A DNA stretch of 64,000 nucleotides from an uncultured Eubacteriales bacterium (GTDB lineage Bacteria; Bacillota; Clostridia; Christensenellales; CAG-917): contig URNP01000003.1 of assembly GCA_900549225.1 (NCBI GenBank), positions 17,264 through 81,263 of the forward strand, written 5' to 3'. The position numbers were made by a program, and so were the translations under genes. The notes under the pieces were generated by a model. That model made no database searches, was not told where the DNA came from, and was given only the letters and a program-made list of their open reading frames with translations. Below are positions 10,988 through 59,620 of the stretch, in pieces; position 1 is the stretch's first letter; each line of letters begins with the position of its first letter.

Positions 10988-11237
10988 TTATCTCTCCGTA
11001 TATCTCGTCGCCTACGTTGCTTTTGAACGCGGCGTTGAGCATCTTTTTCTTGATAAGTTTGCTTGTGCAATCTTCGCTCCCGTGAACCCATACGCCTCTG
11101 CCGTCCGCTTTTTGAGTGCGGTCAAGCGCGACTTTTCCGTCTGCCGTTTTGACGAATCTGAGCATTTCCGATTTGTCGGAGTGCTCCTTGCAGACGATAC
11201 ATTTTCGAGTGTTCTTGGGATGAGACATTTTATTCAC
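10980..11237 (-). CDS. ylxR: YlxR/RnpM family (DUF448) RNA-binding protein
   Basis: 85 aa with RKCIVCKE...DGRGVWV motifs, directly after nusA. Confidence 0.85.
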   Translation of the reverse strand: MNKMSHPKNTRKCIVCKEHSDKSEMLRFVKTADGKVALDRTQKADGRGVWVHGSEDCTSKLIKKKMLNAAFKSNVGDEIYGEINE

Positions 11238-12300
11238 CTTGCACTTCTTGCTCGTCGACTTTGAGCGTGGAATAGGGCTTGACGTCTATCTTCCAACCGG
11301 TAAGTTTTGCCGCAAGACGTGCGTTTTGACCGCTTCTGCCGATTGCAAGCGAGAGTTTCTCGTCGGGAACGATGACTTTTGCGTTCTTCTCTTCCTCGTT
11401 GATGGAAACCATAAGCACTTGCGCAGGCGAAAGCGCGCGAGCAATATATTCGATGGGATCGTCGCAATACTCGATAACGTCGATCTTCTCGCCGCCGAGT
11501 TCCGCTACGACCGCGTTGACTCTCACGCCCTTGTTGCCGATGCAACTGCCGACTGCGTCGACATTGGGATCTTCGCTCGAAACCGAAAGTTTGGTGCGGA
11601 ATCCTGCCTCGCGGACGATGCTGTTGATTTTGACGAGTCCTGCTTTGATTTCGGGAACTTCAAGTTCGAAAAGTCTGCGGACGAAGCCTGCCGAACTTCT
11701 CGATACTACGACTTGCGCGCCGTGCAAACCGTCGCGGATCTTCTTGACGTAAACTTTGATCACGTCGTTGACGTTGTACGTCTCGGTGGGAACTTGGTCT
11801 TGTTGCATCATCACGCCTTCCATTTGCGTGCCGGTGATTTCAACGTAAACGGTGTTTCCTTCCTTTCTTCTGACGATTGCGCTGAGGATTTCGCCCGTGC
11901 GCTCGCTCATTTCGTTGAGAACGAGTTCTTTCTTATAATCGTTGATGCGTTGCAAAATGACTTGCTTTGCCGTTTGCGCCGCAATACGAGAAAAGTCCTT
12001 GGGCGTGATGTCTTCGATGACTACGTCGCCGACTTTGTACTTTTTGTCGATGTCTTGCGCGTCTTCAAGAGAAATTTGCGACTCTTCGTCTTCGACTTCT
12101 TCGACGACGAGTTTGTGCGCGTAAACTTTGTAGGTCATCTTTTCTTCGTTCAAACGAACGGAAATCTGACTTGCAAAGCCGTATTCCTTCTTGTACGCAG
12201 AAACGAGTCCCGCTTCGATGGATTCGATCATCGACTCTTTGGGAATGCGTTGTTCCTTTTCAAGATCGTCTAATGCTTGAAAGAACTCTTTGTTTATCAT
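11230..12300 (-). CDS. nusA: transcription termination/antitermination factor NusA
   Basis: 356 aa with NusA N-domain, S1 and two KH regions (GNKGVRV, IGRSGQNARLA). Confidence 0.96.
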   Translation of the reverse strand: MINKEFFQALDDLEKEQRIPKESMIESIEAGLVSAYKKEYGFASQISVRLNEEKMTYKVYAHKLVVEEVEDEESQISLEDAQDIDKKYKVGDVVIEDITPKDFSRIAAQTAKQVILQRINDYKKELVLNEMSERTGEILSAIVRRKEGNTVYVEITGTQMEGVMMQQDQVPTETYNVNDVIKVYVKKIRDGLHGAQVVVSRSSAGFVRRLFELEVPEIKAGLVKINSIVREAGFRTKLSVSSEDPNVDAVGSCIGNKGVRVNAVVAELGGEKIDVIEYCDDPIEYIARALSPAQVLMVSINEEEKNAKVIVPDEKLSLAIGRSGQNARLAAKLTGWKIDVKPYSTLKVDEQEVQGE

Positions 12301-12312
12301 TGTTTTGTCCTC

Positions 12313-12789
12313 CTAAAACCTGACGTACGGTTGTACTTTGGTCAATAAATTTCGTTGTATTTTCGTTTCCTTCGGATTTTTTCCGTCGGTTTTTATCGTT
12401 ATACTCTCGCCATCAAACGCTACGAGCGTTCCGTGCGATTTCTTCTTGTTCGTGTCGAAAATCTCGATTTCGGTGTCGAGCGCGCGGCGGAAATCGTCGT
12501 CGGTCACGATTTTTCTGTCAAGACCTTGCGAGGATACGTTAAGAACGTAGTCTTCGTCAAATTCGTCTTCGATTGCGTCGAGTTTTGCGGATAATACGTT
12601 GTGCACCTTCTCGCAATCGTTGAGGTCGATCCCCTCTTTTTTCCACAAAAGCGCTTCGACGACGGGCTTGCCGTACTGCTTGTAAAACGCAACGTCTACG
12701 AGTTCGACGTTTTCGTCTGCCTCTTGCACCGCTTCGAGCGCAAGATTCTTCACTTTTTCACGGAGTTCAACCGAGATTTCGCTTGCCAT
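12313..12789 (-). CDS. rimP: ribosome maturation factor RimP
   Basis: ORF 12313-12855 with start at ATG 12789 (MASEISVEL...) after AGAGGTG SD, upstream of nusA. Confidence 0.88.
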   Translation of the reverse strand: MASEISVELREKVKNLALEAVQEADENVELVDVAFYKQYGKPVVEALLWKKEGIDLNDCEKVHNVLSAKLDAIEDEFDEDYVLNVSSQGLDRKIVTDDDFRRALDTEIEIFDTNKKKSHGTLVAFDGESITIKTDGKNPKETKIQRNLLTKVQPYVRF

Positions 12790-12883
12790 ATTCACCTCTT
12801 TGGGCCGATTTTGTCGAATCGCCCCTTCTAAAACAAAGAGTGAGCCGTCGCTCACTCTAGTAAGGTTTTACTATAGTATTTAA

Positions 12884-12912
12884 ATATTAACATATAAAAA
12901 GTATTGTTGCAA
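12884..12912 (-). promoter_or_regulatory. sigma-A type promoter candidate for the rimP-nusA-infB operon (TTGCAA-17-TAATAT)
   Basis: On the minus strand: TTGCAA (12912-12907), 17 nt, TAATAT (12889-12884), preceded by TGT. Confidence 0.45.
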
Positions 12913-13051: not shown

Positions 13052-14644
13052 TTACATTCTCTTTGCTATCTCTTGCAATGCGCCGAAAGTGGCGTAAACG
13101 TCGCTCATCGCTCTGTGCGCGTTTTCGTGAGAGATGCCGTAGGCTTTGGATATGGTTTCGAGTTTGCAATTGGGAAGTTCGGTGAGATACTTTCTTGCCA
13201 AAAGCAACGTGTCGCAAAGTTCGTTGTCGAAATTGTAGCCCATCTTTTCGCTGATTCGGGAAACGATGGGATAATCGTAACCCGCTATATTGTGACCGCA
13301 AAGAATCGAGCCGTGCGCAAACTTGAAAAAGTCGGGCATTACACTTTCGATGCTCGGCGCGTCAAGCACCATTGCGTTGGAAATGTGCGTTATCGCCGTA
13401 ATTTCCTCTGATATGGCCGCAAGAGGCTTGACGAGAGTCTGGAAGGTTTCAGTCGGAACACCGTTTACGACTTTGAGAGCGGCAAGTTCGATAATCTCCG
13501 CGATTTCGGTCTTGAGATCGGTGGTTTCGAGGTCGAAAATAACGAAGGTTTTGTCCTTGAAGAAATCACTGATAATTGGTGCGGGTTTTTCGGCATCTAA
13601 CAAGGTTTTTTCGCTCATATCGACGTATTTTTGCGGAGTGATCGTGACGTATTTTTCGGGTACGGGTTTGATCGAGGTGAGATGAATGCTTGCAAAATCT
13701 ATCTCGGCCTCAAACATTGCGTTGACTTGAAAAGACCACGCTCCCGAAAATTGCGACCAGGTGACTTTGCCCATACAAATCACTTGCGATTGGTCTTTAA
13801 GTGCGACGATTCTGTCTGCGTCTTCCTCTCTAGCGACGAAACTTACGCCCTCGATTCTGCCCGTCGTGTCGTCGAGCACGAATTTTACGAAAGGCAAAGT
13901 TTCGGGTCCGCTCTTGGGGTCGTCGGGATTGTATTTCTTGTTTTTGTAGGATTTTTTCTCGATTTGAGAAATTTTTCCGCACAAAACGATATTGTCGCAA
14001 GCGCCTTTGACGTCGATTATGTAATTTGGCATCTGCGATATGCCGTCGATTTTGCCTCTTGCATACACTTTTTCTCCGACTCTCGCGCTTACGAGGCGCA
14101 AAGAAGAGTCGGTGTGCAAAGTGGTGTCGATATGGAAATCCAAATCGTCTTCTTTTTTGTCCGAAAACAAGCCTTCTTCGACGATGATATCGATATTTTG
14201 ATTGAAAGAGCAATCAAGATACTCGTTGAGCCTATCAAGCAAGTCGCCTGCAGTCAAAAGTTTGTAAGTGGGTGTATCGAGAACGAATTTTACGTCGATA
14301 TCATTGTCGCCGACTTCGATTTTGAGCGTATCATCGTTGATGCACCTGAAAATCATCTGATTGTTGCGATTGAAAAATTCAAGAACTTTGTTTTTTACCA
14401 CGTTGTTGTCGGCATACGTTCTTATGTATTGCACGCTCACGTCAACGCCCGAAAACATTTGGCGAATTATATCGAGAACCTTTTTCTTGCTTTCTTCGTC
14501 GAAAGAACGCACCTCGAATGCGGAAATGATAAATTTGACGACCAACTCTCTTTTGTCCTTATAGTAGGTCGCACTGTTGAGTTTGAGCATCGGGAACTCG
14601 CCTTTGCTCTTTATCGTAAACTCCTCAAAAAACTTCGTTGACAT
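13052..14644 (-). CDS. PolC-like N-terminal/OB-fold protein fused to a DEDDh 3'-5' exonuclease, with no polymerase domain
   Basis: 530 aa, GAGGT SD. Exo I FVIFDLETTDL, Exo II GHNIAGYDYPIV, Exo III HRAMSDVYATF. OB-like segment IVLCGKISQIEKK...VICMGKVTWSQF. It occupies the polC position upstream of rimP. Confidence 0.8.
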   Translation of the reverse strand: MSTKFFEEFTIKSKGEFPMLKLNSATYYKDKRELVVKFIISAFEVRSFDEESKKKVLDIIRQMFSGVDVSVQYIRTYADNNVVKNKVLEFFNRNNQMIFRCINDDTLKIEVGDNDIDVKFVLDTPTYKLLTAGDLLDRLNEYLDCSFNQNIDIIVEEGLFSDKKEDDLDFHIDTTLHTDSSLRLVSARVGEKVYARGKIDGISQMPNYIIDVKGACDNIVLCGKISQIEKKSYKNKKYNPDDPKSGPETLPFVKFVLDDTTGRIEGVSFVAREEDADRIVALKDQSQVICMGKVTWSQFSGAWSFQVNAMFEAEIDFASIHLTSIKPVPEKYVTITPQKYVDMSEKTLLDAEKPAPIISDFFKDKTFVIFDLETTDLKTEIAEIIELAALKVVNGVPTETFQTLVKPLAAISEEITAITHISNAMVLDAPSIESVMPDFFKFAHGSILCGHNIAGYDYPIVSRISEKMGYNFDNELCDTLLLARKYLTELPNCKLETISKAYGISHENAHRAMSDVYATFGALQEIAKRM

Positions 14645-14686
14645 ATCAAACCTCGCGATTTTTGTCTAAAGTATTCTAATTTTGCA

Positions 14687-15751
14687 TTATTTTGACAATA
14701 CTTCTTGTAATAATTTATCAAATTCTTCCATAAGATTGGCACTTGGAACGGTTTTGTAAATTTTGCCGCGGAGCAAGATAACGCTCTTCTCTTTTCCGCC
14801 TGCGATACCAATATCGCTGTGCTCGCCCTCGCCTATTCCGTTGAGCGGACAACCGAGAATGGATATTTTGACGGGTTTATCAATGCCTGCCGTCATCATC
14901 TCGACTTTGTTGGCAAGTCCTTCAACGTCGATTTCCGTGCGCGCGCAAGTCGGGCAAGCAACAACTTCGACCGCATTTTTGCGAAGTCCGAGCGTTTGAA
15001 GAATCTTCTTGCCCGCAAGCACTTCTTCGCATACGTTCGTTGAAAGCGAAACTCTTATCGTGTCGCCTATTCCCTCGCCGAGCAACGTCCCGATGCCGAT
15101 TGCCGATTTCACAAGTCCCGTGCGGAGCGTTCCTGCTTCGGTTACGCCGATATGCAAGGGATAATCGCACGCTTTTGCAAGCATTCTGTTTGCCTTGACG
15201 TTGAGCATCGTGTCGGAAGCCTTGATTGCAATGACGATATCCTTTAATCCTGCGCTCTCAAATGCGTTTGCGCACTCGAGCGCACTCTCGCAAAGCGCTT
15301 TTGCTTCGTCCATCCCTTTGAACTTGGGATCGAGCGAGCCGCCGTTTACGCCGACACGGACGGGTACGCCCATATCTGCCATTCTTTCGGCAAGCGGTTT
15401 GATTTGCGAAAAATCACGCATATTGCCCGGATTCATACGAATCTTCTTCGCTCCTGCGTCGAGCGCCATATGAGCGAGTTTATAATTGTAATGTATGTCG
15501 GCAATGAGCGGCAATCCGCATCTCTTTGCGATTTCGCCGAAGGCAAGCGCAGACGCTTCGTCGGGAACGGCAAGGCGTATAAGGTCGCAGCCCACTGCTT
15601 TGAGCGCGTTTATCTGCGCAAGCGAGCCTTCGACGTCCGTCGTTTTGGTGTTGAGCATCGATTGAACGCTTATTGGAGCATCGCCGCCGATTGCAACGTC
15701 GCCGACGAATACCTGTCTTGTTTTTCTTCTCTCTATCATAGTTTTATCCAT
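14687..15751 (-). CDS. ispG: 4-hydroxy-3-methylbut-2-en-1-yl diphosphate synthase
   Basis: 354 aa GcpE family. C-terminal cluster ligands VACPTCART...GCPLNGIGEGE. Confidence 0.95.
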   Translation of the reverse strand: MDKTMIERRKTRQVFVGDVAIGGDAPISVQSMLNTKTTDVEGSLAQINALKAVGCDLIRLAVPDEASALAFGEIAKRCGLPLIADIHYNYKLAHMALDAGAKKIRMNPGNMRDFSQIKPLAERMADMGVPVRVGVNGGSLDPKFKGMDEAKALCESALECANAFESAGLKDIVIAIKASDTMLNVKANRMLAKACDYPLHIGVTEAGTLRTGLVKSAIGIGTLLGEGIGDTIRVSLSTNVCEEVLAGKKILQTLGLRKNAVEVVACPTCARTEIDVEGLANKVEMMTAGIDKPVKISILGCPLNGIGEGEHSDIGIAGGKEKSVILLRGKIYKTVPSANLMEEFDKLLQEVLSK

Positions 15752-24863: not shown

Positions 24864-25286
24864 TCAGCGATGAGAATCGAGGAAAGATTGCAAAATTATG
24901 GTTGCGGCAACCTTGTCGATGACCTTTTTGCGTTTCTCCCTTCTCACGTCCGCGTCGATGAGCATACGCTCTGCCGAAACGGTGGTAAGTCGCTCGTCCT
25001 GATAGAGTACGGGCAATCCGCTCGCCTCTGCGAGCATATCGCCGAACTGCCTCGTCACGAGCGCTCTGTCCCCTTCCGTGCCGTCCATGTTTTTGGGAAG
25101 TCCGAGCACGAATGCGTCTGCATCCTCTTTTTTTGCGTAATCGCAAAAATATGCGATATCCGCATCGATATTATCCTTTTTTCTGACGTAGGTTTCGCGC
25201 GGATTTGCGGTTATGCCGAGCAAATCGCTCACAGCAACGCCTATACGGACGTCGCCCACGTCCAACGCTATCTTTCGTTTCATCAT
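24864..25286 (-). CDS. ruvX: Holliday junction resolvase-like nuclease RuvX (YqgF)
   Basis: ORF 24864-25391 with start at ATG 25286 (MMKRKIALDVGDVRIGVAVSD). ATGA overlap with the upstream permease stop. Confidence 0.9.
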   Translation of the reverse strand: MMKRKIALDVGDVRIGVAVSDLLGITANPRETYVRKKDNIDADIAYFCDYAKKEDADAFVLGLPKNMDGTEGDRALVTRQFGDMLAEASGLPVLYQDERLTTVSAERMLIDADVRREKRKKVIDKVAATIILQSFLDSHR

Positions 25287-27013
25287 CTCATCAACCTCCG
25301 TGAGCCGATATCGTTTTTGCGTGCTTTCGGTTTCGGCTTGTTCTCGCCTATAAACTCGTACCAAGCAAGCCCTAATTGCTTGAGCAGGCACAGTCCTACG
25401 ATAAGCACTATCGCGGAAAACAGAGTTGCTACCGCCCAGAATATAACCTTTATCGTCACCGCGCCCAAAGTTTCGGCAAACGAGGCAAGCACTATGCCTA
25501 ATACGAATAGCACGATTGCGGGAACTATCGAGGCAAACGCAGATATGATTTGATAGGTGTTTTGCGAGGCGCTTTTGATTTGCGACACCTGCTCCCAGTG
25601 TTGATTGCCCTTCTTCATATCGAAAAGTATGGACATACTGCAGATGCCGACTATCATCATAAGCGTGTCTATGCCGACGAACAGCGTGGATACGATATCG
25701 ATTTTGTAAAGCAACAGCGCGATAAGCATAATCGGCACGAGAATAACGCTCGGCACGATTATTGAAAGCAAAAGTTTGGCTTTTATGCTGTCTGCAGGCT
25801 TGATGGGCAACGTCTTGCTTGCAAAAAACGACTTGCCTTCCCTAGTGTACGCCATATTGGCAAGCATATTTGCACCGGCAAGAAATATCATCGAATACAT
25901 AACTACGAAGCCGATGCCTATCATCTCCGATACGAGCGACGACATTTCCTCTTCCGCTCCCGACTTGAAATCGGTGATAAAGTACATTACGACGATGAAA
26001 AGAGGCGCCATAAGCAAGTTGGCAAACGACGTCATAGCAAGCGAACTGTTGCGCATTATCGAGGTGAAATCCCTCTTCATAAGAGATACGACGACGTTGC
26101 TTTGCTTGAGCGTCGAACTCTTGGACTCGACGGATTGAGTGTTTTCGATTTTCTTTGCGTTGATACGTTTGTAAAACAAAGCCGAAAGCAACAGCATAAG
26201 CGCAATCATTCCGACGGTTATGGCGGCGGATATGCCGAAGTTTTTGCCCGCTTCGATGCCGAGGCAGAAACTTACGAGAACTTTGTCGGGATAAAGCACG
26301 TCGGCAAGCGTAGCAAGCGACGACAGTGCGCCTTGAGATATGACGACGTCGCCCTCTTGTCCGAATCCGCGCGTGTTCATATAGTAGACGAGCACCATGT
26401 ACCCCGCCATAAGCAACATATAGAACAAAATCACGAGTACGCTCTTGAGCGTGGGCTTGCCTTTGAAATACGAACCTATCCAAACAATCGGCATGGAAAG
26501 CACCGCAACGATAAACAACGGAAGTATCGGTGCAACGAGCAACAGGACGATTAGAAGCGGATAGAATCCGTAAAACATAAAACCATTGGCTACGTTAAAC
26601 GCTATTGCGCCGACGAGTACCGTGGGCAAAATTATCGTGGTTGAGAGTTCAAACGCGTTGACGTAGGTCATTGCGAATTTGGCGAAAAATATCGACGTTG
26701 GACGAAGCGGCAACGAGTTGAGAAAAGGTGTATCGTTCGAGCCGTAGAGCGTTGACACGATGGAAAACATCGACAAAAACAGAACCATAAGTTGCGTCGC
26801 GCCTACGATTGCAACAACGAGCAAAGAAAACTCTTTTACGGTTTTCAGGCTCACCGCCATAAAACCGACCGTTGCGGCAATCATTAGGATGAGCGGAAGC
26901 AAGGAAAGAAGCGCTTTCACGCCCGATGAAAGTTTTTTCTTGCCGTCTGCGCCCTCCGACCTCGCACTTGCGTTTCTGTACAAGGTTTTGAATACGATAA
27001 GAAAATCTCTCAT
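25283..27013 (-). CDS. ABC exporter permease, multi-TM (about 576 aa)
   Basis: ORF 25283-27031 (TTG) with ATG 27013 preferred after GAGG. At least 10 hydrophobic helices. Directly follows an ABC ATPase. Confidence 0.72.
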   Translation of the reverse strand: MRDFLIVFKTLYRNASARSEGADGKKKLSSGVKALLSLLPLILMIAATVGFMAVSLKTVKEFSLLVVAIVGATQLMVLFLSMFSIVSTLYGSNDTPFLNSLPLRPTSIFFAKFAMTYVNAFELSTTIILPTVLVGAIAFNVANGFMFYGFYPLLIVLLLVAPILPLFIVAVLSMPIVWIGSYFKGKPTLKSVLVILFYMLLMAGYMVLVYYMNTRGFGQEGDVVISQGALSSLATLADVLYPDKVLVSFCLGIEAGKNFGISAAITVGMIALMLLLSALFYKRINAKKIENTQSVESKSSTLKQSNVVVSLMKRDFTSIMRNSSLAMTSFANLLMAPLFIVVMYFITDFKSGAEEEMSSLVSEMIGIGFVVMYSMIFLAGANMLANMAYTREGKSFFASKTLPIKPADSIKAKLLLSIIVPSVILVPIMLIALLLYKIDIVSTLFVGIDTLMMIVGICSMSILFDMKKGNQHWEQVSQIKSASQNTYQIISAFASIVPAIVLFVLGIVLASFAETLGAVTIKVIFWAVATLFSAIVLIVGLCLLKQLGLAWYEFIGENKPKPKARKNDIGSRRLMR

Positions 27014-27020
27014 ATGCGCC

Positions 27021-27764
27021 TCATTCCGCAAAATGCTCGGTTGAAGTGTCGGTGAGTTTCAAGAACAAGTCCTCGAGAGATTTGTCTTTGTTTTTCTCTT
27101 TGAGTTCGTCTATATCGCAGGTGGCGATGAGGTGTCCGTCCTCGATTATGCCCACTCTGTCGCATACTTTTTCCACGACTTCGAGAACGTGCGAGGAGAA
27201 AAATACGCTGTTGCCCTTGTCGGCGTGCTCGCGCATAAGTTGCTTGAGGTTGTACGCAGAGCGTGGATCGAGCCCCGTCATCGGCTCGTCGAGAATCCAA
27301 ATTTTCGGCTCGTGTATGAGCGCGCCAATTATGTTGAGCTTTTGCTTCATCCCGTGCGAATAGGTGGAAATCTGCTTCTTCACCGCATCGGTCAAAGAGA
27401 AAAGTTCGCAATACTTGTCGAGCCTTTCCTGCCTTTGCGCCGTGGGAACTTCAAAGACGTCGCATATGAAATTAACATATTCTACGCCTGTCAACCCCTC
27501 GTACAAAACGTGGTCGTCGCTGACGTAGCCGATGAGTTTTTTCGCTTCGATGGGAGAGGCTTTGAGGTCGATACCGTCAACGGTGACTCTGCCTTCTTCA
27601 AAGGAGATAATGCCCGTGATGCTCTTTATCGTCGTGGATTTGCCTGCGCCGTTCGGTCCGATAAATCCGAAAATCTCGCCGTCGTTGACGGTGAGAGATA
27701 AATTTTCGACGGACGGCTTTTGATTGCCCGAATACGTTTTGGTTAAATTTTCGATCGTTAACAT
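27021..27764 (-). CDS. ABC transporter ATP-binding protein
   Basis: Walker A GPNGAGKST, signature YSHGMKQKL, Walker B ILDEPMTGLD. Confidence 0.92.
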   Translation of the reverse strand: MLTIENLTKTYSGNQKPSVENLSLTVNDGEIFGFIGPNGAGKSTTIKSITGIISFEEGRVTVDGIDLKASPIEAKKLIGYVSDDHVLYEGLTGVEYVNFICDVFEVPTAQRQERLDKYCELFSLTDAVKKQISTYSHGMKQKLNIIGALIHEPKIWILDEPMTGLDPRSAYNLKQLMREHADKGNSVFFSSHVLEVVEKVCDRVGIIEDGHLIATCDIDELKEKNKDKSLEDLFLKLTDTSTEHFAE

Positions 27765-33961: not shown

Positions 33962-34039
33962 CGGGGTGTAGCGCAGTTTGGCTAGCGCGTCTGATTTGGG
34001 TTCAGAAGGTCGGGAGTTCGAATCTCTTCACCCCGACCA
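33962..34039 (+). tRNA. tRNA-Pro (anticodon TGG), CCA encoded
   Basis: Hand-folded cloverleaf: acceptor CGGGGTG/CACCCCG, anticodon loop TTTGGGT, T-loop TTCGAAT. Confidence 0.92.
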
Positions 34040-34072
34040 GCACAACTTCACCGATATGATTCGGGCCTTTAG

Positions 34073-34149
34073 CTCAGTTGGTTAGAGCAGTCGGCTCATA
34101 ACCGATCGGTCCGCGGTTCGAGTCCGTGAAGGCCCACCATAAAATATAA
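34073..34149 (+). tRNA. tRNA with anticodon CAT (Met, or Ile2 if lysidine-modified), CCA encoded
   Basis: Acceptor GGGCCTT/AAGGCCC, anticodon loop CTCATAA, T-loop TTCGAGT. Confidence 0.9.
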
Positions 34150-34166
34150 ATTATTTGGCCCGGTAG

Positions 34167-34243
34167 TACAGTTGGTTAGTACGCCAGCCTGTCACGCTGG
34201 AGGTCAGGGGTTCGAGCCCCCTCCGGGTCGCCATCAACCGTCA
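34167..34243 (+). tRNA. tRNA-Asp (anticodon GTC), CCA encoded
   Basis: Acceptor GGCCCGG/CCGGGTC, anticodon loop CTGTCAC, T-loop TTCGAGC. Confidence 0.92.
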
Positions 34244-34280
34244 CTGCCATAAAACTAAAAAAGGGATCGAAATCCCAAAT

Positions 34281-34356
34281 GCCTCGGTAGCTCAGGTGGT
34301 AGAGCAAGGGACTGAAAATCCCTGTGTCGGTGGTTCGAGTCCGCCCCGAGGCACCA
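34281..34356 (+). tRNA. tRNA-Phe (anticodon GAA), CCA encoded
   Basis: Acceptor GCCTCGG/CCGAGGC, anticodon loop CTGAAAA, T-loop TTCGAGT. Confidence 0.92.
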
Positions 34357-34368
34357 ACAACTCAATAC

Positions 34369-34444
34369 GCTGGTGTAGCTCAACAGGCAGAGCAACTGAT
34401 TTGTAATCAGTAGGTTGTTGGTTCGATTCCGATCACCAGCTCCA
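34369..34444 (+). tRNA. tRNA-Thr (anticodon TGT), CCA encoded
   Basis: Acceptor GCTGGTG/CACCAGC, anticodon loop TTTGTAA, T-loop TTCGATT. Confidence 0.9.
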
Positions 34445-34447
34445 TAT

Positions 34448-34532
<85 letters not shown>

Positions 34533-39447: not shown

Positions 39448-39476
39448 TGACTATTTTATAATAGTTTGCTAAAATT
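39448..39476 (+). promoter_or_regulatory. sigma-A type promoter candidate (TTGACT-17-TAAAAT)
   Basis: TTGACT at 39448-39453, 17 nt, TAAAAT at 39471-39476, 26 nt upstream of the 39502 ATG. Confidence 0.6.
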
Positions 39477-39501
39477 ATTATATCAATTTTCGGAGCGATT
39501 T

Positions 39502-41514
39502 ATGGATATCTCTTCAGTCAACAGCGACCTTATACGAGGCAACGTCACGACGATCATTCTCGGTTGTCTTTGGAACTCGGATAAGTACGGCTACGAAATC
39601 CTCAAAGAGATCGAGGACAAGAGCAATTCGCAGTACGTTTTGAAGCAAGCCACCTTGTACAATCAACTCAAACGTCTTGAGAAACAAGGGCTCGTTTCCT
39701 CCTACGACGGCGACCCCGACGATACGGGCGGTGGCAAACGTCGCTACTACACCCTCACCAAAGAAGGCAGAGCCTACCTCACAAAAGAAAAGAGCGAATA
39801 CGAATACTCGCGCACCATTCTCGACAAACTCGTGTCGAACGACGAGTTCGACTTCACTGTTCCCATTCCTTTTGACGCAAGCGAATTGCGCCCCTATTCA
39901 AAACGCGACGTCGAGGACAAACCCAAAGTGGTTTACAAAGACAAAATCGTCGAGAAGAAGGTGTTTTTTGACCGCTACGGCAACGAAGTGAGCGAAGAAG
40001 AAGCCTCTGCGCTAAAAGAACAAGCCGAACGCGAGGACGAAGATGCTCGTCTTAAAGACGAACAATTGCGACTCAAAGAAGAGGAAACTCAAAAGGTCAG
40101 CGAACAATTGCGTTTGTCCGAAGAAGAAGCACAAAAACGTGAGGAATTGCTCAAAAAATCCGAAGAGGACGCAAGAGCCAAGGAAGAGCAAATCAGACTT
40201 CATGAAGAAGAGGCAAGACAAAAGGACGAGCAACTCAGAAAGACCGAAGAGCAACTCAAGAAGTCCGAAGAGGATCTCGAACTCGTAAAATCTATGCTTC
40301 GCAGAATGGAGGAAGAAAAACTCCGCGCCGAAGAAGAAAAACGACTTGCCGAGGAAGAGGAAAAACGCCGTCAGGAAGAAGAAAAACGCCGTCAGGAAGA
40401 AGAAGCCGAACGCAAACGTCAACAACAGGCAAAACCCGCTCAGACTCTTGAGGAAATGTTTGCGAAACTCGACGCTGAAAGCGAATATAAAAAACAAGAA
40501 GAGACGCGCGTATATTCGTTCAACTCCTCTGCCACTCCGCAAGAACACACCTACATAAACGGCTACACCAATCAAGTCGAACAAAATCAACGCTCTCAAA
40601 CTTCGCTGAAAGATATTTTCAAACAACTCGACGAGCGCGAGGCGCAAATCGACGATAAACTTGCAAAAGAGCATCAGGAGCAACAAGAGCAAGAAGCGTT
40701 GCAACAAGCCGCGGCGGAACAGGCTCGTCAAGCCGAAATTCAAGCGCAACAAGCACAGCAAAAGCAAAACGAGCAACAGAGCATCGATCAGTTCTACCCC
40801 GCCGAACTCGAAAGCAAGAATCAAAATTATACCGCAAACAACGACAAAGGTCATTTCGTGACCTCTGCCGTCGTATCAAGGCAAGAAGGCGGTTTCGATT
40901 ACGAAAAAGACGACGTGAATTATCGCGACTTCTTCGTATCCTTGCAAGACAAAGGCGAACCCCAACCACAACAGGAAAAAGCACAACAAAACGACTATTC
41001 GGACAGCGATATAAAGACAAGATTGTACGCAAAGGGCTTCAAAATCCGTCCGTACGACAGAGGAAACACGTCGGAATACTACACTTTCAACTTCATTCAG
41101 TCAAACAGACTGAATCGCGACACTTTCCTCATCATTCTTGCGTTCTTCGCCGTCGAAGTCGCAATTATGTGGGCGTCGCTCGCAACAAAAATCAGTTATA
41201 CGTATTTCCTTCCCATACTGCTTGTGGGTAGCGCACTCTGCCTCGTGCCGACCGTCATCTATCTGACAAATCCGACCAAACGGTCAAGGGCAAACTTCAA
41301 TTTCAAACTGTCGATACTCAATCGCACGATGCTGTTTATCGAATTGACCGTTGTGTGCATTCTCATCGGTTTCTTCGGACTCGGCGCAAACGTCAACGAC
41401 GTCAATCTGATTTTGGAATCGATAGTGCTTCCGATGGTGCTCCTCACCAACCTCCCGTTGAGTTCGCTCATATATTGGTTGTTGTATAGAACAAGGAAGT
41501 ATCACACAGCATAG
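39502..41514 (+). CDS. membrane-anchored PadR-like winged-helix protein with a long E/K/Q-rich coiled coil and 4 C-terminal TM helices
   Basis: ORF 39466 (TTG) to 41514 with ATG 39502 preferred after GGAG. N-terminus ...IILGCLWNSDKYGYEILKEI...LYNQLKRLEKQGLV...RRYYTLTKEGRAYL is PadR-like. It is followed by about 350 aa of charged heptad-like repeats and four hydrophobic helices at the C-terminus. Confidence 0.8.
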   Translation: MDISSVNSDLIRGNVTTIILGCLWNSDKYGYEILKEIEDKSNSQYVLKQATLYNQLKRLEKQGLVSSYDGDPDDTGGGKRRYYTLTKEGRAYLTKEKSEYEYSRTILDKLVSNDEFDFTVPIPFDASELRPYSKRDVEDKPKVVYKDKIVEKKVFFDRYGNEVSEEEASALKEQAEREDEDARLKDEQLRLKEEETQKVSEQLRLSEEEAQKREELLKKSEEDARAKEEQIRLHEEEARQKDEQLRKTEEQLKKSEEDLELVKSMLRRMEEEKLRAEEEKRLAEEEEKRRQEEEKRRQEEEAERKRQQQAKPAQTLEEMFAKLDAESEYKKQEETRVYSFNSSATPQEHTYINGYTNQVEQNQRSQTSLKDIFKQLDEREAQIDDKLAKEHQEQQEQEALQQAAAEQARQAEIQAQQAQQKQNEQQSIDQFYPAELESKNQNYTANNDKGHFVTSAVVSRQEGGFDYEKDDVNYRDFFVSLQDKGEPQPQQEKAQQNDYSDSDIKTRLYAKGFKIRPYDRGNTSEYYTFNFIQSNRLNRDTFLIILAFFAVEVAIMWASLATKISYTYFLPILLVGSALCLVPTVIYLTNPTKRSRANFNFKLSILNRTMLFIELTVVCILIGFFGLGANVNDVNLILESIVLPMVLLTNLPLSSLIYWLLYRTRKYHTA

Positions 41515-41775: not shown

Positions 41776-41850
41776 AGGGGAGTGGCTCAATGGTAGAGCA
41801 ACGGTCTCCAAAACCGTCGGTTGCGTGTTCGAGTCGCGTCTCCCCTGCCA
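41776..41850 (+). tRNA. tRNA-Trp (anticodon CCA), CCA end encoded
   Basis: Acceptor AGGGGAG/CTCCCCT, anticodon loop CTCCAAA, T-loop TTCGAGT. Confidence 0.93.
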
Positions 41851-42807: not shown

Positions 42808-45156
42808 TTATTCAGCGGGTTCTTCAACTTTTTTCTTGCGAGTGGTCTTCTTTGCAGGAACAGGTTCTGCTTCTTCGTCTGCAAGGTTGAGGTTGAGGTT
42901 CTTGAACAAATCGCCGAGAGTTGCGGAAGAACTTCCGGAAACCCATTCTTTGGGTTCGTTTGAAGTTTCTTTCTTCGCACCGCGACGTTCGCGTTTGTTT
43001 TCGCCGTCAGCGACCTTTTGCTCGAACTTCTTGACTCTTGAAGATCTCTTTGCCGCTTTCTCTTCGTCGGTTGCATCAACTTGACCCTCTGCTTGTGCAG
43101 TTTCTTCGGGTGCGGGGAGCAATTCCTTGATGGAGAGAGTGATGCGGTTGTCGTCGAATCCGATGATCTTTGCTTCAACTTCTTGACCGACCGTCAACGC
43201 TTCGTTTGCGTCTTTGATCCAGTTGTGAGAGATTTGAGAAACGTGGACGAGTCCGTCAACGCCGTCGTCGATTGAAACGAATGCGCCATAGGGGAAGATT
43301 CTTTCAACTTTGCCCTTGATGACCGTACCGACGGGGAACTTCTCTGCCGCAACTTCGTAAGGTTTCTTTTGGAGTTGCTTGTAGCCTAGAGAGATCTTGC
43401 CCGTTTCTCTGTCCATCTTGAGGACTACGAAGTCGTAACTCTCGCCGATGGTGAGAACCGTGGACGGATCGGTGATCTTGTTCCAGGAAAGTTCGGAGAT
43501 GTGTGCGAGGCAATCGAAGCCGCGAACGTTTACGAACGCGCCGAATTGCGTGAATCTCTTAACTTTGCCGGTGACGATGTCGTGCACGTGAATATTGTTC
43601 CAGAAAAGATCTTCTTTCTCTTTCTTCTCTCTTTCGAGGATGATGCGTTGAGACGCGAAGAGGTATCTGGATTTCTTTTGGGGTTTGTCCTCTGCTTGAG
43701 CGGTTTCTTCGCCCTCTGCTTCGGTGTTTTCTTTTTCCTTCGGAGGCATAAGCGTCAAGCGGAGCGTTTTGCCCTTGTAGTCTTCGAGGTTGCTGACGTA
43801 GCCCATTCTGATTTGGCTTGCCGGCACGAAGATGGTGTATTGACCGAGTCTTCCTCTCAAACCGCCCTTGACAACTTCAGTCATGGTCAAAGAGAATTCG
43901 CCTTGAGCAAGAGCCTTTTCTGCTTCTTCCTCTTCAAGACGCACTGCGTCGACGTCCTTCTTGGACAAAGACACGTACTCTTTGTTGACAGCAAGAATAG
44001 TTGCTTGAATTTCGTCGCCTTCTTTGAAGTCGGCAGGATTGTAGTTGCCGTCCAAAGATGCTTCACTCTTATCAATGAAACCGTCTTTCTTTCCGCCGAT
44101 TGCGACGTAAATGCCGCTATCGCCTGCGCTGATGACTTTTCCTCTGATGCGTTTGCCGACTTTGTAATTGGTGTAGCCGACGGATGTTGCAGATTTCAAA
44201 AGGTCTGCCATCGTGGTGGGTTCTTTTTCTTCGGCGACTTGTTGCTCTTGAAGTGTTGCCTCGTTTTTCACTTCAGTTTCTACTGTTTCCACAGCGTTCT
44301 TTTGAGTTTCACTCATAAGTCTTGTTACCTCCTGTATCAACCACGGCGGAGTCGACGCTCCTGCGACAATCGATACACTTTGAATATCCTTGATAAATTT
44401 TGTTTGATTCAGAGCGTCGTTTGCGTTTTCGACGAAAAACGTACTCGGATTGACCTCTTTTGCCACCTCGTACAAACGTCTCGTGTTTGCACTGGTGTGA
44501 CTTCCGAGAACCAAAACCGCGTCGGTTTTTGCAGCGAGTGCGCGCGCTTCGTCCTGTTTCACTTTTGTAGTATAACAAATAGTGTTAAAAATGCCAACTA
44601 ATTTATTGTAGTTTTTTGCAAAAATCTTTGCATTTTCTTCAATTTTTTCATATTTTTCGGGCAATATCGTGGTTTGGAAGAGAATCGAGGTCGGTTTGTC
44701 GCCGATCGGCAGGATTTCATCGTCCGAAACGACTTTGCAATTTTCGCCTGCGTAAGAGGCTACGCCGACGACTTCGTCGTGATTTTTGTCTCCAACGATA
44801 ATCACGTCGTCGCCGAGTTGCGCCCTTTCGTTCGCTATCTTCTGATTGCGCTTGACGACGGGACAAGTCGCATCGAAAAGCACTACGCCCCTACGCTTCA
44901 ATCTCTCTTCGAGCTCTTTGGTTATGCCGTGGGCGCGTATGAGGGCAACGTCGCCCTCTTTGAGATTGTCCGCATCCGCTATATCGATGCAAATCGCGCC
45001 TTTTTCTAAAAGGAAAGCCGTGACGAGTTCGTTGTGTACGACCTCGCCCAAAGTATAGATTTTTCCGTACTTTTCGGCAAGCGCGACGGCTTGGTCAACC
45101 GCACTTTTAACGCCCTTGCAAAAGCCTGCGTTTTTTGCGAGAATAACTTTCAACAT
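42808..45156 (-). CDS. ispH: bifunctional 4-hydroxy-3-methylbut-2-enyl diphosphate reductase (IspH) / ribosomal protein S1 fusion
   Basis: 782 aa. The N-terminal part of about 280 aa is LytB-like (NAGFCKGV, ATCPVV, ICYTT). It is followed by four S1 repeats and a K/E-rich tail. The start could be the TTG 3 nt downstream. Confidence 0.9.
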   Translation of the reverse strand: MLKVILAKNAGFCKGVKSAVDQAVALAEKYGKIYTLGEVVHNELVTAFLLEKGAICIDIADADNLKEGDVALIRAHGITKELEERLKRRGVVLFDATCPVVKRNQKIANERAQLGDDVIIVGDKNHDEVVGVASYAGENCKVVSDDEILPIGDKPTSILFQTTILPEKYEKIEENAKIFAKNYNKLVGIFNTICYTTKVKQDEARALAAKTDAVLVLGSHTSANTRRLYEVAKEVNPSTFFVENANDALNQTKFIKDIQSVSIVAGASTPPWLIQEVTRLMSETQKNAVETVETEVKNEATLQEQQVAEEKEPTTMADLLKSATSVGYTNYKVGKRIRGKVISAGDSGIYVAIGGKKDGFIDKSEASLDGNYNPADFKEGDEIQATILAVNKEYVSLSKKDVDAVRLEEEEAEKALAQGEFSLTMTEVVKGGLRGRLGQYTIFVPASQIRMGYVSNLEDYKGKTLRLTLMPPKEKENTEAEGEETAQAEDKPQKKSRYLFASQRIILEREKKEKEDLFWNNIHVHDIVTGKVKRFTQFGAFVNVRGFDCLAHISELSWNKITDPSTVLTIGESYDFVVLKMDRETGKISLGYKQLQKKPYEVAAEKFPVGTVIKGKVERIFPYGAFVSIDDGVDGLVHVSQISHNWIKDANEALTVGQEVEAKIIGFDDNRITLSIKELLPAPEETAQAEGQVDATDEEKAAKRSSRVKKFEQKVADGENKRERRGAKKETSNEPKEWVSGSSSATLGDLFKNLNLNLADEEAEPVPAKKTTRKKKVEEPAE

Positions 45157-45184: not shown

Positions 45185-46603
45185 TTATTTCTTCTTTTTG
45201 CCCTTCGTCACTTTTTCGACGTACTCGTTGCAAAGACGACGGGTTTCGTCCATTTTTTCTTTGATGACTTCGGTTGCGGCGTGATTTTCGTCAATTGTGC
45301 GCGCACCGTAGAATTGCTCGAGCGTAAACGGCTCGCCGACGTAAAGCCAGTTCTTTCTGAACGCCTTGGGGCTTTGATAATAAATCATCGGCACGATGGG
45401 CACCTTGGATTTGATCGCAAAACGAGCGGTACCCGTCTTGAATTCCGCCATATGTTGCGTACCCTCTTTATTTCTCGTTCCCTCGGGGAAAATGAGCAAT
45501 TGTTTGCCGTCTTTGAGCACTCTCAAAACCTGCTTGACCGATTCGATATCGGCTTCGCCTCTGCGTACGGGAATCGCACCCATTTTGTGAAGAAACCAAC
45601 CCGCAACGGGATTGGTGAACAGTTCGTACTTTGCAAGTGCGTGCGCCTCTTTTTTAAAGAGAACGAAGTACGGAATCATCGAGTCCATCTTTGAATAGTG
45701 GTTGCAAGTGAAAAGTGCGCCCTTGACCTTTTTTGCATTCTCCGCGCCGATGACTTTTGTCGGCCACACGAGCATTTGCACGGGGCGAAGAATCACTCTC
45801 AAAAATCTGTAGAAAGCAAAACTCTTTTCGGGATTATAATACGTCTTGATTCTTGCAAGCGTTTTCTTGTCCATCTCGCTTGACGGAATTATGGTTGACG
45901 GCTGTTTTTCGGCATTCTGTTCGGCTAAATTCTCTTTTTTCGTTTTGATATGAACCACCTCTTTGACGTGTGAGACGACGTCCTCGACGCTCATTTGCGT
46001 GGTGTCCACGAAGTCTGCGTCTTCCGCTTGTTTGAGCGGCGCAACCTCGCGGTGCGAGTCGTTGTAATCACGCTGAATTATATCTTTCAAAAGCGTGTCG
46101 TAATCGACGGTTTCGCCTTTTTCCTGCAAATCTTTAAGGCGTCTTTTCGCTCTTTCTTCGGCAGAAGCGGTGAGATAGAACTTGCAGTTTGCGTTCGGAA
46201 GAACGAATGTTCCGATATCTCTGCCGTCAAGCACGACATCGTTTTTGCTTGCAAAATCACGCTGTAAATCCACCATTTTGTATCTTACGCAAGGCAACGC
46301 GGATATATCGCTTGCGGCTTTTGACATATAGTGTTCGCGAAGATGCGGCGTGGCGTCGATTCCGTTGACGAAAATGTGTTGCACGCCGTTATCGTCGTAT
46401 TTGACGTCCATTTTCAAATCTTTGAGCATCTCGGACACCTTCTCTTCGTCCTTGACGTCGATACCGTTTTGGATTGCCAAATAGGCAGTCGCGCGATACA
46501 TTGCGCCCGTGTCGAGATAGATGATTCCAAGATCTTTTGCCACCGCTTTTGCGATCGTGCTCTTGCCTGCGCCGGCAGGTCCGTCTATTGCGATATTAAT
46601 CAT
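45185..46603 (-). CDS. cmk: cytidylate kinase fused to 1-acyl-sn-glycerol-3-phosphate acyltransferase-like domain
   Basis: 472 aa. N-terminal Cmk (IAIDGPAGAGKST, LDTGAMYR, DGRDIGT). C-terminal LPLAT motifs CNHYSKMD (NHx4D) and FPEGTRN. Confidence 0.88.
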   Translation of the reverse strand: MINIAIDGPAGAGKSTIAKAVAKDLGIIYLDTGAMYRATAYLAIQNGIDVKDEEKVSEMLKDLKMDVKYDDNGVQHIFVNGIDATPHLREHYMSKAASDISALPCVRYKMVDLQRDFASKNDVVLDGRDIGTFVLPNANCKFYLTASAEERAKRRLKDLQEKGETVDYDTLLKDIIQRDYNDSHREVAPLKQAEDADFVDTTQMSVEDVVSHVKEVVHIKTKKENLAEQNAEKQPSTIIPSSEMDKKTLARIKTYYNPEKSFAFYRFLRVILRPVQMLVWPTKVIGAENAKKVKGALFTCNHYSKMDSMIPYFVLFKKEAHALAKYELFTNPVAGWFLHKMGAIPVRRGEADIESVKQVLRVLKDGKQLLIFPEGTRNKEGTQHMAEFKTGTARFAIKSKVPIVPMIYYQSPKAFRKNWLYVGEPFTLEQFYGARTIDENHAATEVIKEKMDETRRLCNEYVEKVTKGKKKK

Positions 46604-57852: not shown

Positions 57853-59268
57853 TTATTTATTCTTCTCTGCTTCGAGAATGTTGCGTGCCATATACACGCC
57901 CATAACCGACGCCATCATAAGACCTCTCGTCCAACCGCTGCTGTCGCCGAGGCAATGCAGACCGTGAATTGACGTGTTAAGATGATCGTCCATCTTGATT
58001 TTGTTGCTGTAGAATTTAAGTTCGGGGCTATAAAGCAAGGTTTCGTATCCTGCAAAACCGGGCACGACTTTATCCACTGCCTGTATAAAGTTGATAATGT
58101 TAAGCATTGCTCTATACGGCATACCTGCGGTTATATCGCCCGCAACTGCGTCTTTGAGCGTCGGACGAACGTTCGAGAATCCGAGTTCTCTCTGCCAAGT
58201 GCGTTTTCCGCTCAATATGTCGCCGTAGCGTTGCACCATAATCTTGCCTGCGCCGAGCATATTGGTGAGTTCACCGACGCGCTGTGCGTACGCAATAGGT
58301 TCTTTGAACGGCTCGGTAAAGGAGTGCGAACAAAGAATCGCAAGATTCGTATTGTCGCTCTTCTTTTCCTTGTAACTGTGACCGTTGACGACTGCAAGGT
58401 CGTTGTCGTAGTTCTCTTGCGACACGAATCCGCCCGGGTTTTGACAGAAAATACGCACTTTGTTCTTGAACGGTTCGGGATATCCGATGAGTTTCGACTC
58501 GTAAAGCACGTCGTTGACCTCTTCCATAATCTCGTTGCGCACTTCCACTCTCACGCCGATATCGACGACGCCGGGAGCGTGCGCGATGTTGTGTTCGGCG
58601 CACATTTTTTCGAGCCAGTCGGCGCCGCGGCGACCGGTGGCGATAATGGTTTTTTCTGCATAAATATTCTCTTTGTTGTCGCCTTTGCTGTCTTCGATGC
58701 ACACGCCTTTGCATACGTCGCCCTCGAGAATGATGTTGTCACACTGTCTGCCGAAGATGAGTTCTACGCCGTTGTCACGCAAATAATTCTCGATTGCAAG
58801 GTACAAATCGTGAGCCTTTTCTGTGCCGAGGTGGCGAATGGGACAATCAACGAGTTTCAAGCCTGCCTGAATGGCTTTTTTGCGGATTTCTTTGACTTTT
58901 TCCTCGTTTCCCAAACCTTCGATATGCTCGTCTGCACCAAATTCGAGATAGATTCCGTCCGTATAGTCGATAAGTTCCTGCGCTTTGTCCGCACCGATAA
59001 GTTGAGGTAGTTCTCCACCCACTTCGTAGGAAAGAGAAAGTTTGCCGTCGGAAAACGCGCCTGCGCCCGAAAAACCCGTCGTGATATGACAATAAGGCTT
59101 GCAATTGCGGCACTCGCCTCCGAAAGTTTTGGGACAAACTCGTTTTTCAACGGGTTGACCTTTTTCGATAATACACATTTTTTTCTTGCTGCCGTTGCGC
59201 AAAAGTTCGATTGCGGTAAAGATTCCGGCAGGGCCTGCGCCCACTATGCAAATATCGTATTTTCTCAT
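57853..59268 (-). CDS. FAD-dependent oxidoreductase (uncharacterised dehydrogenase family)
   Basis: ORF 57853-59295 with start at ATG 59268 (MRKYDICIVGAGPAGIF) after GAGGTAG. Rossmann GxGxxG motif. Confidence 0.8.
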   Translation of the reverse strand: MRKYDICIVGAGPAGIFTAIELLRNGSKKKMCIIEKGQPVEKRVCPKTFGGECRNCKPYCHITTGFSGAGAFSDGKLSLSYEVGGELPQLIGADKAQELIDYTDGIYLEFGADEHIEGLGNEEKVKEIRKKAIQAGLKLVDCPIRHLGTEKAHDLYLAIENYLRDNGVELIFGRQCDNIILEGDVCKGVCIEDSKGDNKENIYAEKTIIATGRRGADWLEKMCAEHNIAHAPGVVDIGVRVEVRNEIMEEVNDVLYESKLIGYPEPFKNKVRIFCQNPGGFVSQENYDNDLAVVNGHSYKEKKSDNTNLAILCSHSFTEPFKEPIAYAQRVGELTNMLGAGKIMVQRYGDILSGKRTWQRELGFSNVRPTLKDAVAGDITAGMPYRAMLNIINFIQAVDKVVPGFAGYETLLYSPELKFYSNKIKMDDHLNTSIHGLHCLGDSSGWTRGLMMASVMGVYMARNILEAEKNK

Positions 59269-59620
59269 TTCTACCTCGTATATCGTTATTTTCAAACGAA
59301 TATAAAATAATACATTATTTTAGATATCATTTTTTGTCGTCGACGAAAGTTTTGCACCCCGCGACCTGTTGGATTATAATTCTAAAACGCCAATCTGTCA
59401 ACACATTCGATAGGTTTGAAGAAAATGTTTTTTTTCTTTGCAAATAATCGGTTCGCTTCGTCATTTTCGGCTATACGAGTTTTGGTCAAATTCTTTTCGT
59501 TTTGAGTATAATTTGAACTTCTGCGTGATACGCGGTTTTGCGAAAACGTTTGCCTGCTTTGTCGATAATTGTCAATTTTTGAGAGGTAACGCCATAAAAT
59601 ATACAACTCGGAGGACGTAA

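Follow-up and report, generated by a model that had tools for sequence, protein, structure and literature searches.

The replicase PolC is considered both essential to low-GC Gram-positive bacteria and a defining trait of this group, in which Clostridia count as 'PolC + DnaE1' organisms. In B. subtilis, polC is located directly upstream of rimP-nusA-ylxR-L7Ae-infB. The 64,000-nt stretch of contig URNP01000003.1 from an uncultured Eubacteriales bacterium that was analysed here (the window; all coordinates are window positions) raises the question of what has become of this replicase gene. The slot directly 5′ of rimP-nusA, which is the canonical polC position, is occupied in the window by a gene encoding a protein of 530 aa. 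The complete coding sequence (13052..14644, minus strand) specifies a PolC-derived protein made up of an N-terminal domain (N-domain), an OB fold, a linker and a DEDDh 3′–5′ exonuclease (Exo), with no PHP and no polymerase domain. An earlier note on this DNA had described the product as the front half of PolC without the PHP and polymerase core, and this description is supported by hhalign, tblastn and Foldseek comparisons. On balance, the protein may well be a PolC-derived, clamp-tethered 3′–5′ exonuclease that proofreads in trans, and these bacteria probably organise replication proofreading unlike textbook Firmicutes.

Domain architecture and relationship to PolC

The combination of an OB fold with a DEDDh exonuclease in the 530-aa open reading frame (ORF) at 13052–14644 was confirmed, and all peptides quoted in the earlier note were located within it. 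The exonuclease domain (residues 363–530; 13055..13558, on the minus strand like all other parts of the gene) is defined by Pfam, NCBIfam and PDB sequence matches as well as by invariant residues. RNase_T (PF00929), the sole Pfam family that passes thresholds in the protein, covers residues 368–519 (E 8e-34). The motifs Exo I (FVIFDLETTDL, residues 367–377), Exo II (GHNIAGYDYPIV, residues 450–461) and Exo III (HRAMSDVYATF, residues 510–520) are all present, the catalytic residues D371, E373, D457, H510 and D515 are unchanged throughout a 33-member family alignment, and the protein stops right after Exo III. The OB fold (residues 183–320; 13685..14098), from which the earlier note had quoted a segment corresponding to residues 219–310, is recognised by PF01336, hhalign and invariant columns, including the invariant D259, and bears the PolC-type signature L-D-D-T-T-x-x-I-x-x-V-x-F. 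The PF01336 match has an E value of 0.005 in the 530-aa protein itself, but the model matches 33 of 33 family members (best E 9e-9). The N-domain, modelled separately with AlphaFold2 at a predicted local distance difference test (pLDDT) score of 90.8, consists of two alpha-beta-beta-alpha-alpha-beta units of the type II KH-like fold. Subdomain 1 (residues 1–77; 14414..14644) is defined by this model and by hhalign to the PolC N-domain, and subdomain 2 (residues 78–160; 14165..14413) by the AlphaFold2 models, hhalign and Foldseek. An acidic disordered linker (residues 161–182; 14099..14164; pLDDT < 50) leads to the OB fold, and the full-length model has a pLDDT of 84.

The similarity of residues 1–340 to the PolC N and OB domains, which the earlier note had proposed to check, was found when the family N-terminus (residues 1–342) was aligned by hhalign with ten PolC N-termini (99.1%, E 7e-18, 309 collinear columns). 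This set comprised eight sequences of Clostridia and Negativicutes from the supplement of PMC3919608 (Timinskas et al. 2014), E. faecium PolC from a PDB alignment, and B. subtilis PolC, the sequence of which was validated by a score of 1966 bits against 9QPC. Taken separately, the OB fold aligned with the PolC OB at 98% (E 2e-13, 95 columns) and the N-domain with the PolC N-domain at 68% (E 4.7e-5, 132 columns). The cross-domain, reversed and 20 column-shuffled controls all gave E values of at least 0.17, except for the reversed OB (0.006). Searches with B. subtilis PolC by tblastn yielded single high-scoring segment pairs over PolC residues 219–583 (OB and Exo) in five homologues (E 1e-22 to 1e-32), in which the first PHP segment of PolC appears as a gap, and no match past PolC residue about 590. 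The top Foldseek match of the full model was E. faecium PolC 9QPC (375 columns, E 3e-16), and the best PDB sequence matches were the PolC-type exonuclease of T. maritima (2p1j) and E. faecium PolC.

In NCBIfam, residues 362–527 align to PolC model positions 420–585. The PolC equivalog cut-offs are nevertheless missed by a wide margin (135.8 bits vs 873 for NF001688 and 120.3 vs 1043 for TIGR01405), which indicates that the protein is derived from PolC but is not a PolC. The cut-offs of the DnaQ families are also missed (68.8 bits vs 71.5 for TIGR00573 and 53.9 vs 222.7 for TIGR01406). The PHP model PF02811 has no match in the protein or in 33 family members, the Pol3 catalytic core (PF07733, PF17657) and HhH (PF14579) are absent from the protein according to Pfam, NCBIfam and tblastn, and no Pfam or NCBIfam match was obtained beyond residues 361–530 and the OB fold. 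Residues 1–342 and Exo align collinearly with PolC, minus PHP and polymerase.

The N-domain of PolC has been predicted to form two KH-like subdomains, and the N-domains of PolC proteins are poorly conserved (PMC3919608). In the PDB, Foldseek places the N-domain model next to tandem KH, BON and ring-building-motif folds, among them NusA KH1-KH2. As the PolC N-domain is unresolved in every PolC structure, including the cryo-electron microscopy structures 9QPC and 9QRN, these neighbours have no bearing on whether the domain belongs to PolC.

Compared with PolC of B. subtilis and E. faecium (9QPC), the protein shares the OB fold with its 'TD-T-SI' signature and the DEDDh exonuclease, probably also an N-domain of the same type (two KH-like units) in the same order, as well as the genomic position directly 5′ of rimP-nusA. 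In contrast to PolC, it lacks PHP segments on both sides of Exo, the palm, thumb and fingers, HhH and the C-terminal clamp motif. Its length is 530 aa rather than about 1400–1450 aa, and a clamp-type motif is found in the linker between OB and Exo instead.

This linker spans approximately 40 residues. Its first part (residues 321–344; 13613..13684), delimited by alignment conservation, contains the peptide K-P-V-P-x-x-Y-x-x-V-x-P-x-P-Y, in which P329, Y332 and P337 are nearly invariant and the start of which aligns to the R-x-D-x-A-P junction ahead of PHP in PolC. Despite the linker setting of this peptide region (residues 326–340), the block-mean pLDDT is 92 at residues 331–340 and 71 at residues 321–330, and the peptide may serve as a docking site for a partner protein. 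The clamp-binding-like pentapeptide that follows (residues 345–349; 13598..13612) lies in a segment of low pLDDT and is recognised by its positional conservation, with the family consensus Q-x-[S/D/T]-[L/M]-[F/L]. The pattern Q-x-[small/polar]-[LMIVF]-[FLI] occurs at this column in 93 of 117 members; elsewhere its background is 0.00028 per residue. The 530-aa protein of the window has the weaker variant E-K-T-L-L (EKTLL). Clostridial PolC and DnaE1 carry β-clamp motifs of the same form, such as QLSLF, QMSLL and QLNLL (PMC3919608 supplement). The OB–Exo linker, with its clamp-binding-like QxxLF motif, is new relative to PolC.

Conservation of the family and its locus

At least 21 contigs from independently assembled gut metagenomes encode exactly this 530-aa protein, with unchanged neighbours in every case, which excludes a collapsed assembly and rules out the misassembly that the earlier note had raised as an alternative. 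A protein search, listing the best 120 homologues, revealed that there are at least 120 of 510–590 aa with identity down to 27%, and all of the matches listed come from uncultured Clostridia. When a profile of the N-terminal half was run with HMMER against 1.84 billion representatives, the family comprised 657 clusters at 50% identity, 498 of them at E <= 1e-10. The best 150 clusters have lengths of at most 589 aa; all of these are family members, and no PolC-length protein is found among them. A look-up for cultured hosts returned uncultured sources only. Comparison with three orthologues of 87–90% identity gave ratios of non-synonymous to synonymous substitution rates (dN/dS) of 0.02–0.06, and the values for the N-domain (0.006–0.05) and the OB fold (0.02–0.05) demonstrate constraint equal to that on the exonuclease.

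The public names of family members, among them the CAG:314 homologue at L056 10001-11500, conflict. They include 'DNA polymerase III polC-type' (CDE71515.1, 530 aa), 'ribonuclease H-like domain-containing protein', '3'-5' exoribonuclease' and 'hypothetical protein', together with a K03763-like label, while a JGI fragment of the family is named 'DNA polymerase-3 subunit alpha (Gram-positive type)'. Owing to this inconsistency, surveys based on names or on KEGG Orthology labels may wrongly count these genomes as PolC-positive.

The order uppS-cdsA-dxr-rseP-ispG-[this gene]-rimP-nusA claimed in the earlier note was confirmed by Pfam and NCBIfam, which together give frr-uppS-cdsA-dxr-rseP-ispG-[530-aa gene]-rimP-nusA-infB, all on the minus strand. 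The locus was then compared with the loci of 80 related genomes of 28–60% GC, labelled as Clostridia, Christensenellaceae, CAG:314, Ca. Coproplasma, Scatosoma or Onthoplasma, for each of which up to 10 kb a side was fetched, contig permitting. The homologue is flanked by ispG or rseP and by rimP-nusA-infB in most of the 80 relatives, so that the survey of relatives suggested in the earlier note recovered the same locus. Extra genes of 2–8 kb are inserted before rimP at five loci, and 11 of the 80 contigs or fetched stretches contain no rimP or nusA. The polC-rimP-nusA order was also found in a fetched Firmicute contig (L095).

The upstream genes vary among these relatives. Approximately 28 of the 80 loci have neither dxr nor ispG and show the order frr-uppS-cdsA-rseP-[homologue]-rimP (L012, L018, L021-L024, L027, L032, L034, L035, L037, L039, L040, L042 and others), which suggests that genes of the methylerythritol phosphate pathway are absent or located elsewhere in these lineages. 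Another 30 or so of the 80 have ispG but no dxr.

As stated in the earlier note, no polC of about 1400 aa is present in the window. Its longest ORF is infB (949 aa), and tblastn with B. subtilis PolC and a clostridial DnaE1 N-terminus as queries detected no DNA coding for PHP-C or Pol3 in the window. A long-ORF scan combined with tblastn (PolC and DnaE1) likewise revealed a polymerase gene at none of the 80 related loci within the fetched DNA, where the large ORFs encode only leucine-rich repeat (LRR) surface proteins, SMC, a GGDEF/EAL protein, PurL-like proteins and IF-2. An ORF of ~1180 aa between the homologue and rimP (L010 4964-8509, L071 11498-15046) was considered as the missing polymerase and rejected, being an LRR / Listeria-Bacteroides repeat protein. 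Family-bearing genomes may have DnaE1 only, an intact PolC elsewhere or an Exo-less PolC elsewhere.

When proteins were searched with a profile built from clostridial PolC N-termini, the matches listed were all 'fragments' of 527–690 aa. These were considered as a second family of truncated PolC and rejected, since in the contig set examined (P0367) they result from gene chopping under translation table 11. At L091 10001-14781 (also in L092 and L093), gene calling breaks PolC into four successive ORFs of 604, 222, 503 and 245 aa, and the genes for a penicillin-binding protein and LepA are split in L091-L093 too. UGA probably encodes an amino acid in the organism of L091-L093, and the P0367 contigs likewise probably come from a UGA-recoded lineage.

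In the window, the 530-aa ORF starts at an ATG and lies on the minus strand, the strand having been absent from the earlier note. It is preceded by a Shine–Dalgarno sequence, GAGG (14651..14654, minus strand), 7 nt 5′ of the ATG, and only 42 bp separate it from the stop codon of ispG, the upstream neighbour (14687..15751, minus strand; Pfam, NCBIfam). The downstream neighbours rimP and nusA (11230..12855, minus strand) mark the canonical polC position. The 195-bp spacer 3′ of the 530-aa gene contains, as pattern matches only, promoter-like hexamers TTTATA-17-TATAGT followed by a hairpin with a 9-bp stem and a T-run (12830..12898, minus strand); this element is probably a leader/terminator or attenuator of the rimP-nusA-infB unit. 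The promoter-like site and hairpin before rimP make co-transcription of the 530-aa gene with ispG likelier than with rimP. A strong ribosome-binding site and an ATG at 12789 (12787–12789, minus strand) lie 3′ of the spacer hairpin, and the true rimP start is therefore probably this ATG rather than the GTG at 12855. Over the whole window (1–64000), the minus strand carries about 70–78% of the ORFs and is purine-rich, with a plus-strand GC skew of -0.027 and AT skew of -0.068.

A candidate trans-acting proofreader and its alternatives

The explanation favoured here is that the gene descended from polC by loss of both PHP segments and of the whole polymerase core (Pol3 and HhH). The N-terminal domain with its two KH-like units, the OB fold and the DEDDh exonuclease would have been retained, the latter two now being joined by the ~40-residue linker. 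The product would be a free-standing 3′–5′ DNA exonuclease at the replication fork, tethered to the sliding clamp by the QxxLF motif of the linker. The N-domain would dock the protein to the clamp loader, a role that has been proposed for the PolC N-domain (PMC3919608), while the OB fold would hold single-stranded DNA. The DEDDh site could then remove mispaired 3′ ends left by another C-family polymerase, either DnaE1 or a PolC copy elsewhere, and the net role would be that of an epsilon-like trans proofreader. As precedents, the exonuclease of PolC can correct DnaE errors in trans in B. subtilis (as cited in PMC12926913), and some Clostridia, e.g. Ammonifex, have DnaE1 only (PMC3919608).

The known systems that come closest differ from the 530-aa protein in instructive ways. 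Similarly to E. coli DnaQ (epsilon), it is a free-standing DEDDh exonuclease with a clamp-binding-type motif beside the catalytic domain. Epsilon is the model of a proofreading subunit that acts in trans, apart from the polymerase. Unlike the 530-aa protein, epsilon has no N-domain or OB fold, and its clamp motif and alpha-binding tail are C-terminal to Exo, whereas here all additional elements are N-terminal; the similarity to DnaQ amounts to 74 bits, compared with 145–176 bits to PolC Exo. The T. maritima protein 2P1J, which is the best Exo match (E 1e-50 with the family profile), is likewise a PolC-like exonuclease encoded apart from the polymerase, but it is a 186-aa single domain without the N-domain, OB fold or linker motif. 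The Exo-less PolC proteins of Clostridia and Negativicutes (NTD-OB-PHP-Pol3-HhH; PMC3919608) represent a mirror image within a modular set of PolC domains: in these, the polymerase is retained and the exonuclease has been lost. By analogy only, a nuclease module also outlives the polymerase module in a member of family X polymerases, although the nuclease (PHP) and the lineage are different. No description of a polymerase-less PolC, or of PolC loss in this lineage, was found in the literature that could be searched. Exo-less PolCs and stand-alone DnaQ homologues appear in the two systematic surveys of C-family polymerases, whereas the NTD-OB-Exo architecture does not.

Several observations weigh against a clamp-tethered proofreader of this kind. 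Taken alone, the N-domain suggests homology to PolC with moderate strength, and the Pfam models of the PolC N-terminus (PF14480, PF11490) match 0 of 33 members, even at E <= 1. The scan for a partner polymerase, which covered the window and the fetched DNA of the 80 loci, found none in these stretches. According to PMC12926913, the PHP proofreader of DnaE1 is usually intact in Clostridia, and hence an extra proofreader is not obviously needed. In the window protein and its closest relatives, E replaces Q at motif position 1, and the predicted clamp binding may therefore be weak in this species. Finally, KH-like and OB modules and ribosome-biogenesis neighbours would also fit an RNA substrate.

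Among the alternatives, an assembly artefact or a decaying polC pseudogene has nothing but the unexpected length in its favour and can be regarded as refuted. Both are excluded by the occurrence on at least 21 independent contigs, the fixed length across ~650 clusters, the invariant catalytic residues and the low dN/dS (0.02–0.06). It is also very improbable, and largely refuted, that the protein is a generic DnaQ-like exonuclease with 340 N-terminal residues unrelated to PolC. Such an origin would agree with RNase_T alone passing the Pfam thresholds, with the silence of the PolC N-terminal Pfam models and with the absence of PolC-length proteins from the best 150 N-terminal matches. However, PolC N-domains are poorly conserved in any case (PMC3919608), and profile–profile alignment, tblastn and Foldseek align the OB fold, and more weakly the N-domain, collinearly with PolC. 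The same domains have a bearing on a third alternative, an RNA 3′-end processing enzyme involved in rRNA or tRNA maturation, in which the KH-like units and the OB fold would bind RNA for an RNase T-like DEDDh RNase. The resemblance of the N-domain model to tandem KH domains, including NusA KH1-KH2, the inclusion of RNase T among DEDDh enzymes, the ribosome- or RNA-related neighbours (rimP, nusA, infB, rbfA, nrnA and truB) and the use of '3'-5' exoribonuclease' as a name for homologues in some sources are all consistent with such an enzyme. Nevertheless, this neighbourhood was inherited from polC and provides no evidence of a functional link, and the promoter-like site and hairpin lie between the gene and rimP. 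The exonuclease domain scores 90–176 bits to PolC, DnaQ and DinG DNA exonucleases but 26–28 bits to RNase T chains, the OB fold bears the PolC signature, and the QxxLF motif has no known role in RNA processing. Such an RNA-processing role appears quite improbable.

A stronger competitor, although still unlikely, is a truncated paralogue that coexists with an intact or Exo-less PolC elsewhere in the genome and acts off the fork as a repair or recombination 3′–5′ DNA exonuclease, like ExoX, ExoI or the DinG exonuclease. Genomes with two PolCs and PolCs without the Exo insertion are known in Clostridia and Negativicutes (PMC3919608), and the top PDB sequence match, 2p1j, is a stand-alone PolC-type exonuclease. 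Strand-biased gene distribution and purine asymmetry are statistically tied to PolC-bearing genomes (PMC11040001); both traits are seen in the window, where over 64 kb they constitute weak evidence of a PolC genome. On the other hand, in most of the 80 relatives the ancestral polC position is held by the truncated gene and not by a full polC, and a full copy would have had to move before the clade diversified. The strong purifying selection on the PolC N-domain and the gained clamp motif point to replisome association, and Acidaminococcus, a host of Exo-less PolC, is not among the family matches listed. The trans-acting proofreader derived from PolC is retained as the preferred explanation, in which the domain homology and collinearity with PolC, the intact catalytic residues, the conservation, the synteny and the purifying selection were observed, and clamp and clamp-loader binding, the DNA substrate and the proofreading role are inferred.

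Other features of the window and wider implications

Apart from the polC slot, the window contains two adjoining fusion genes on the minus strand. One encodes IspH fused to ribosomal protein S1 (782 aa; 42808-45156; NF000907 562 bits, below the cut-off of 624), and the other encodes cytidylate kinase fused to a PlsC-type 1-acylglycerol-3-phosphate acyltransferase (472 aa; 45185-46603). A cluster of six tRNA genes (Pro, Met, Asp, Phe, Thr and Tyr; 33962-34532) and a lone tRNA-Trp gene (41776-41850) are located on the plus strand. Four long ORFs were also noted, at 25283-27031 and 57853-59295 on the minus strand and at 1290-2534 and 39466-41514 on the plus strand. For three of them (582, 480 and 414 aa), NCBIfam gave no match at E <= 1e-10, while the match of the fourth (682 aa) is limited to its PadR-like N-terminal ~100 residues.

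In a large and abundant gut lineage, the polC position holds a strongly conserved protein with only the non-polymerase parts of PolC. It is possible, although we regard it as less than probable, that an order-level gut clade of Christensenellales-like metagenome-assembled genomes (including CAG:314, Ca. Coproplasma, Ca. Scatosoma and Ca. Onthoplasma) no longer possesses a PolC polymerase at all, replicates with DnaE1 alone and keeps the N-domain, OB fold and exonuclease as a proofreading subunit bound to the clamp and the clamp loader. If the polymerase is truly gone, the lineage would represent a natural experiment in which a replicase has shrunk to a proofreader that acts in trans. Because the PolC N-domain would have been retained without the polymerase, the function of this domain, long unknown, would then become testable. 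Such a system would also constitute a further replisome type beside the three already recognised and an independent, Firmicute-style origin of an epsilon subunit via replicase reduction. Drugs that inhibit PolC are being developed clinically against C. difficile, and in that case commensals of this clade would be intrinsically insensitive to PolC-targeting antibiotics such as ibezapolstat and hence spared. Even with a full PolC elsewhere in these genomes, the proteins would form a widespread, undescribed candidate family of replisome-associated exonucleases.

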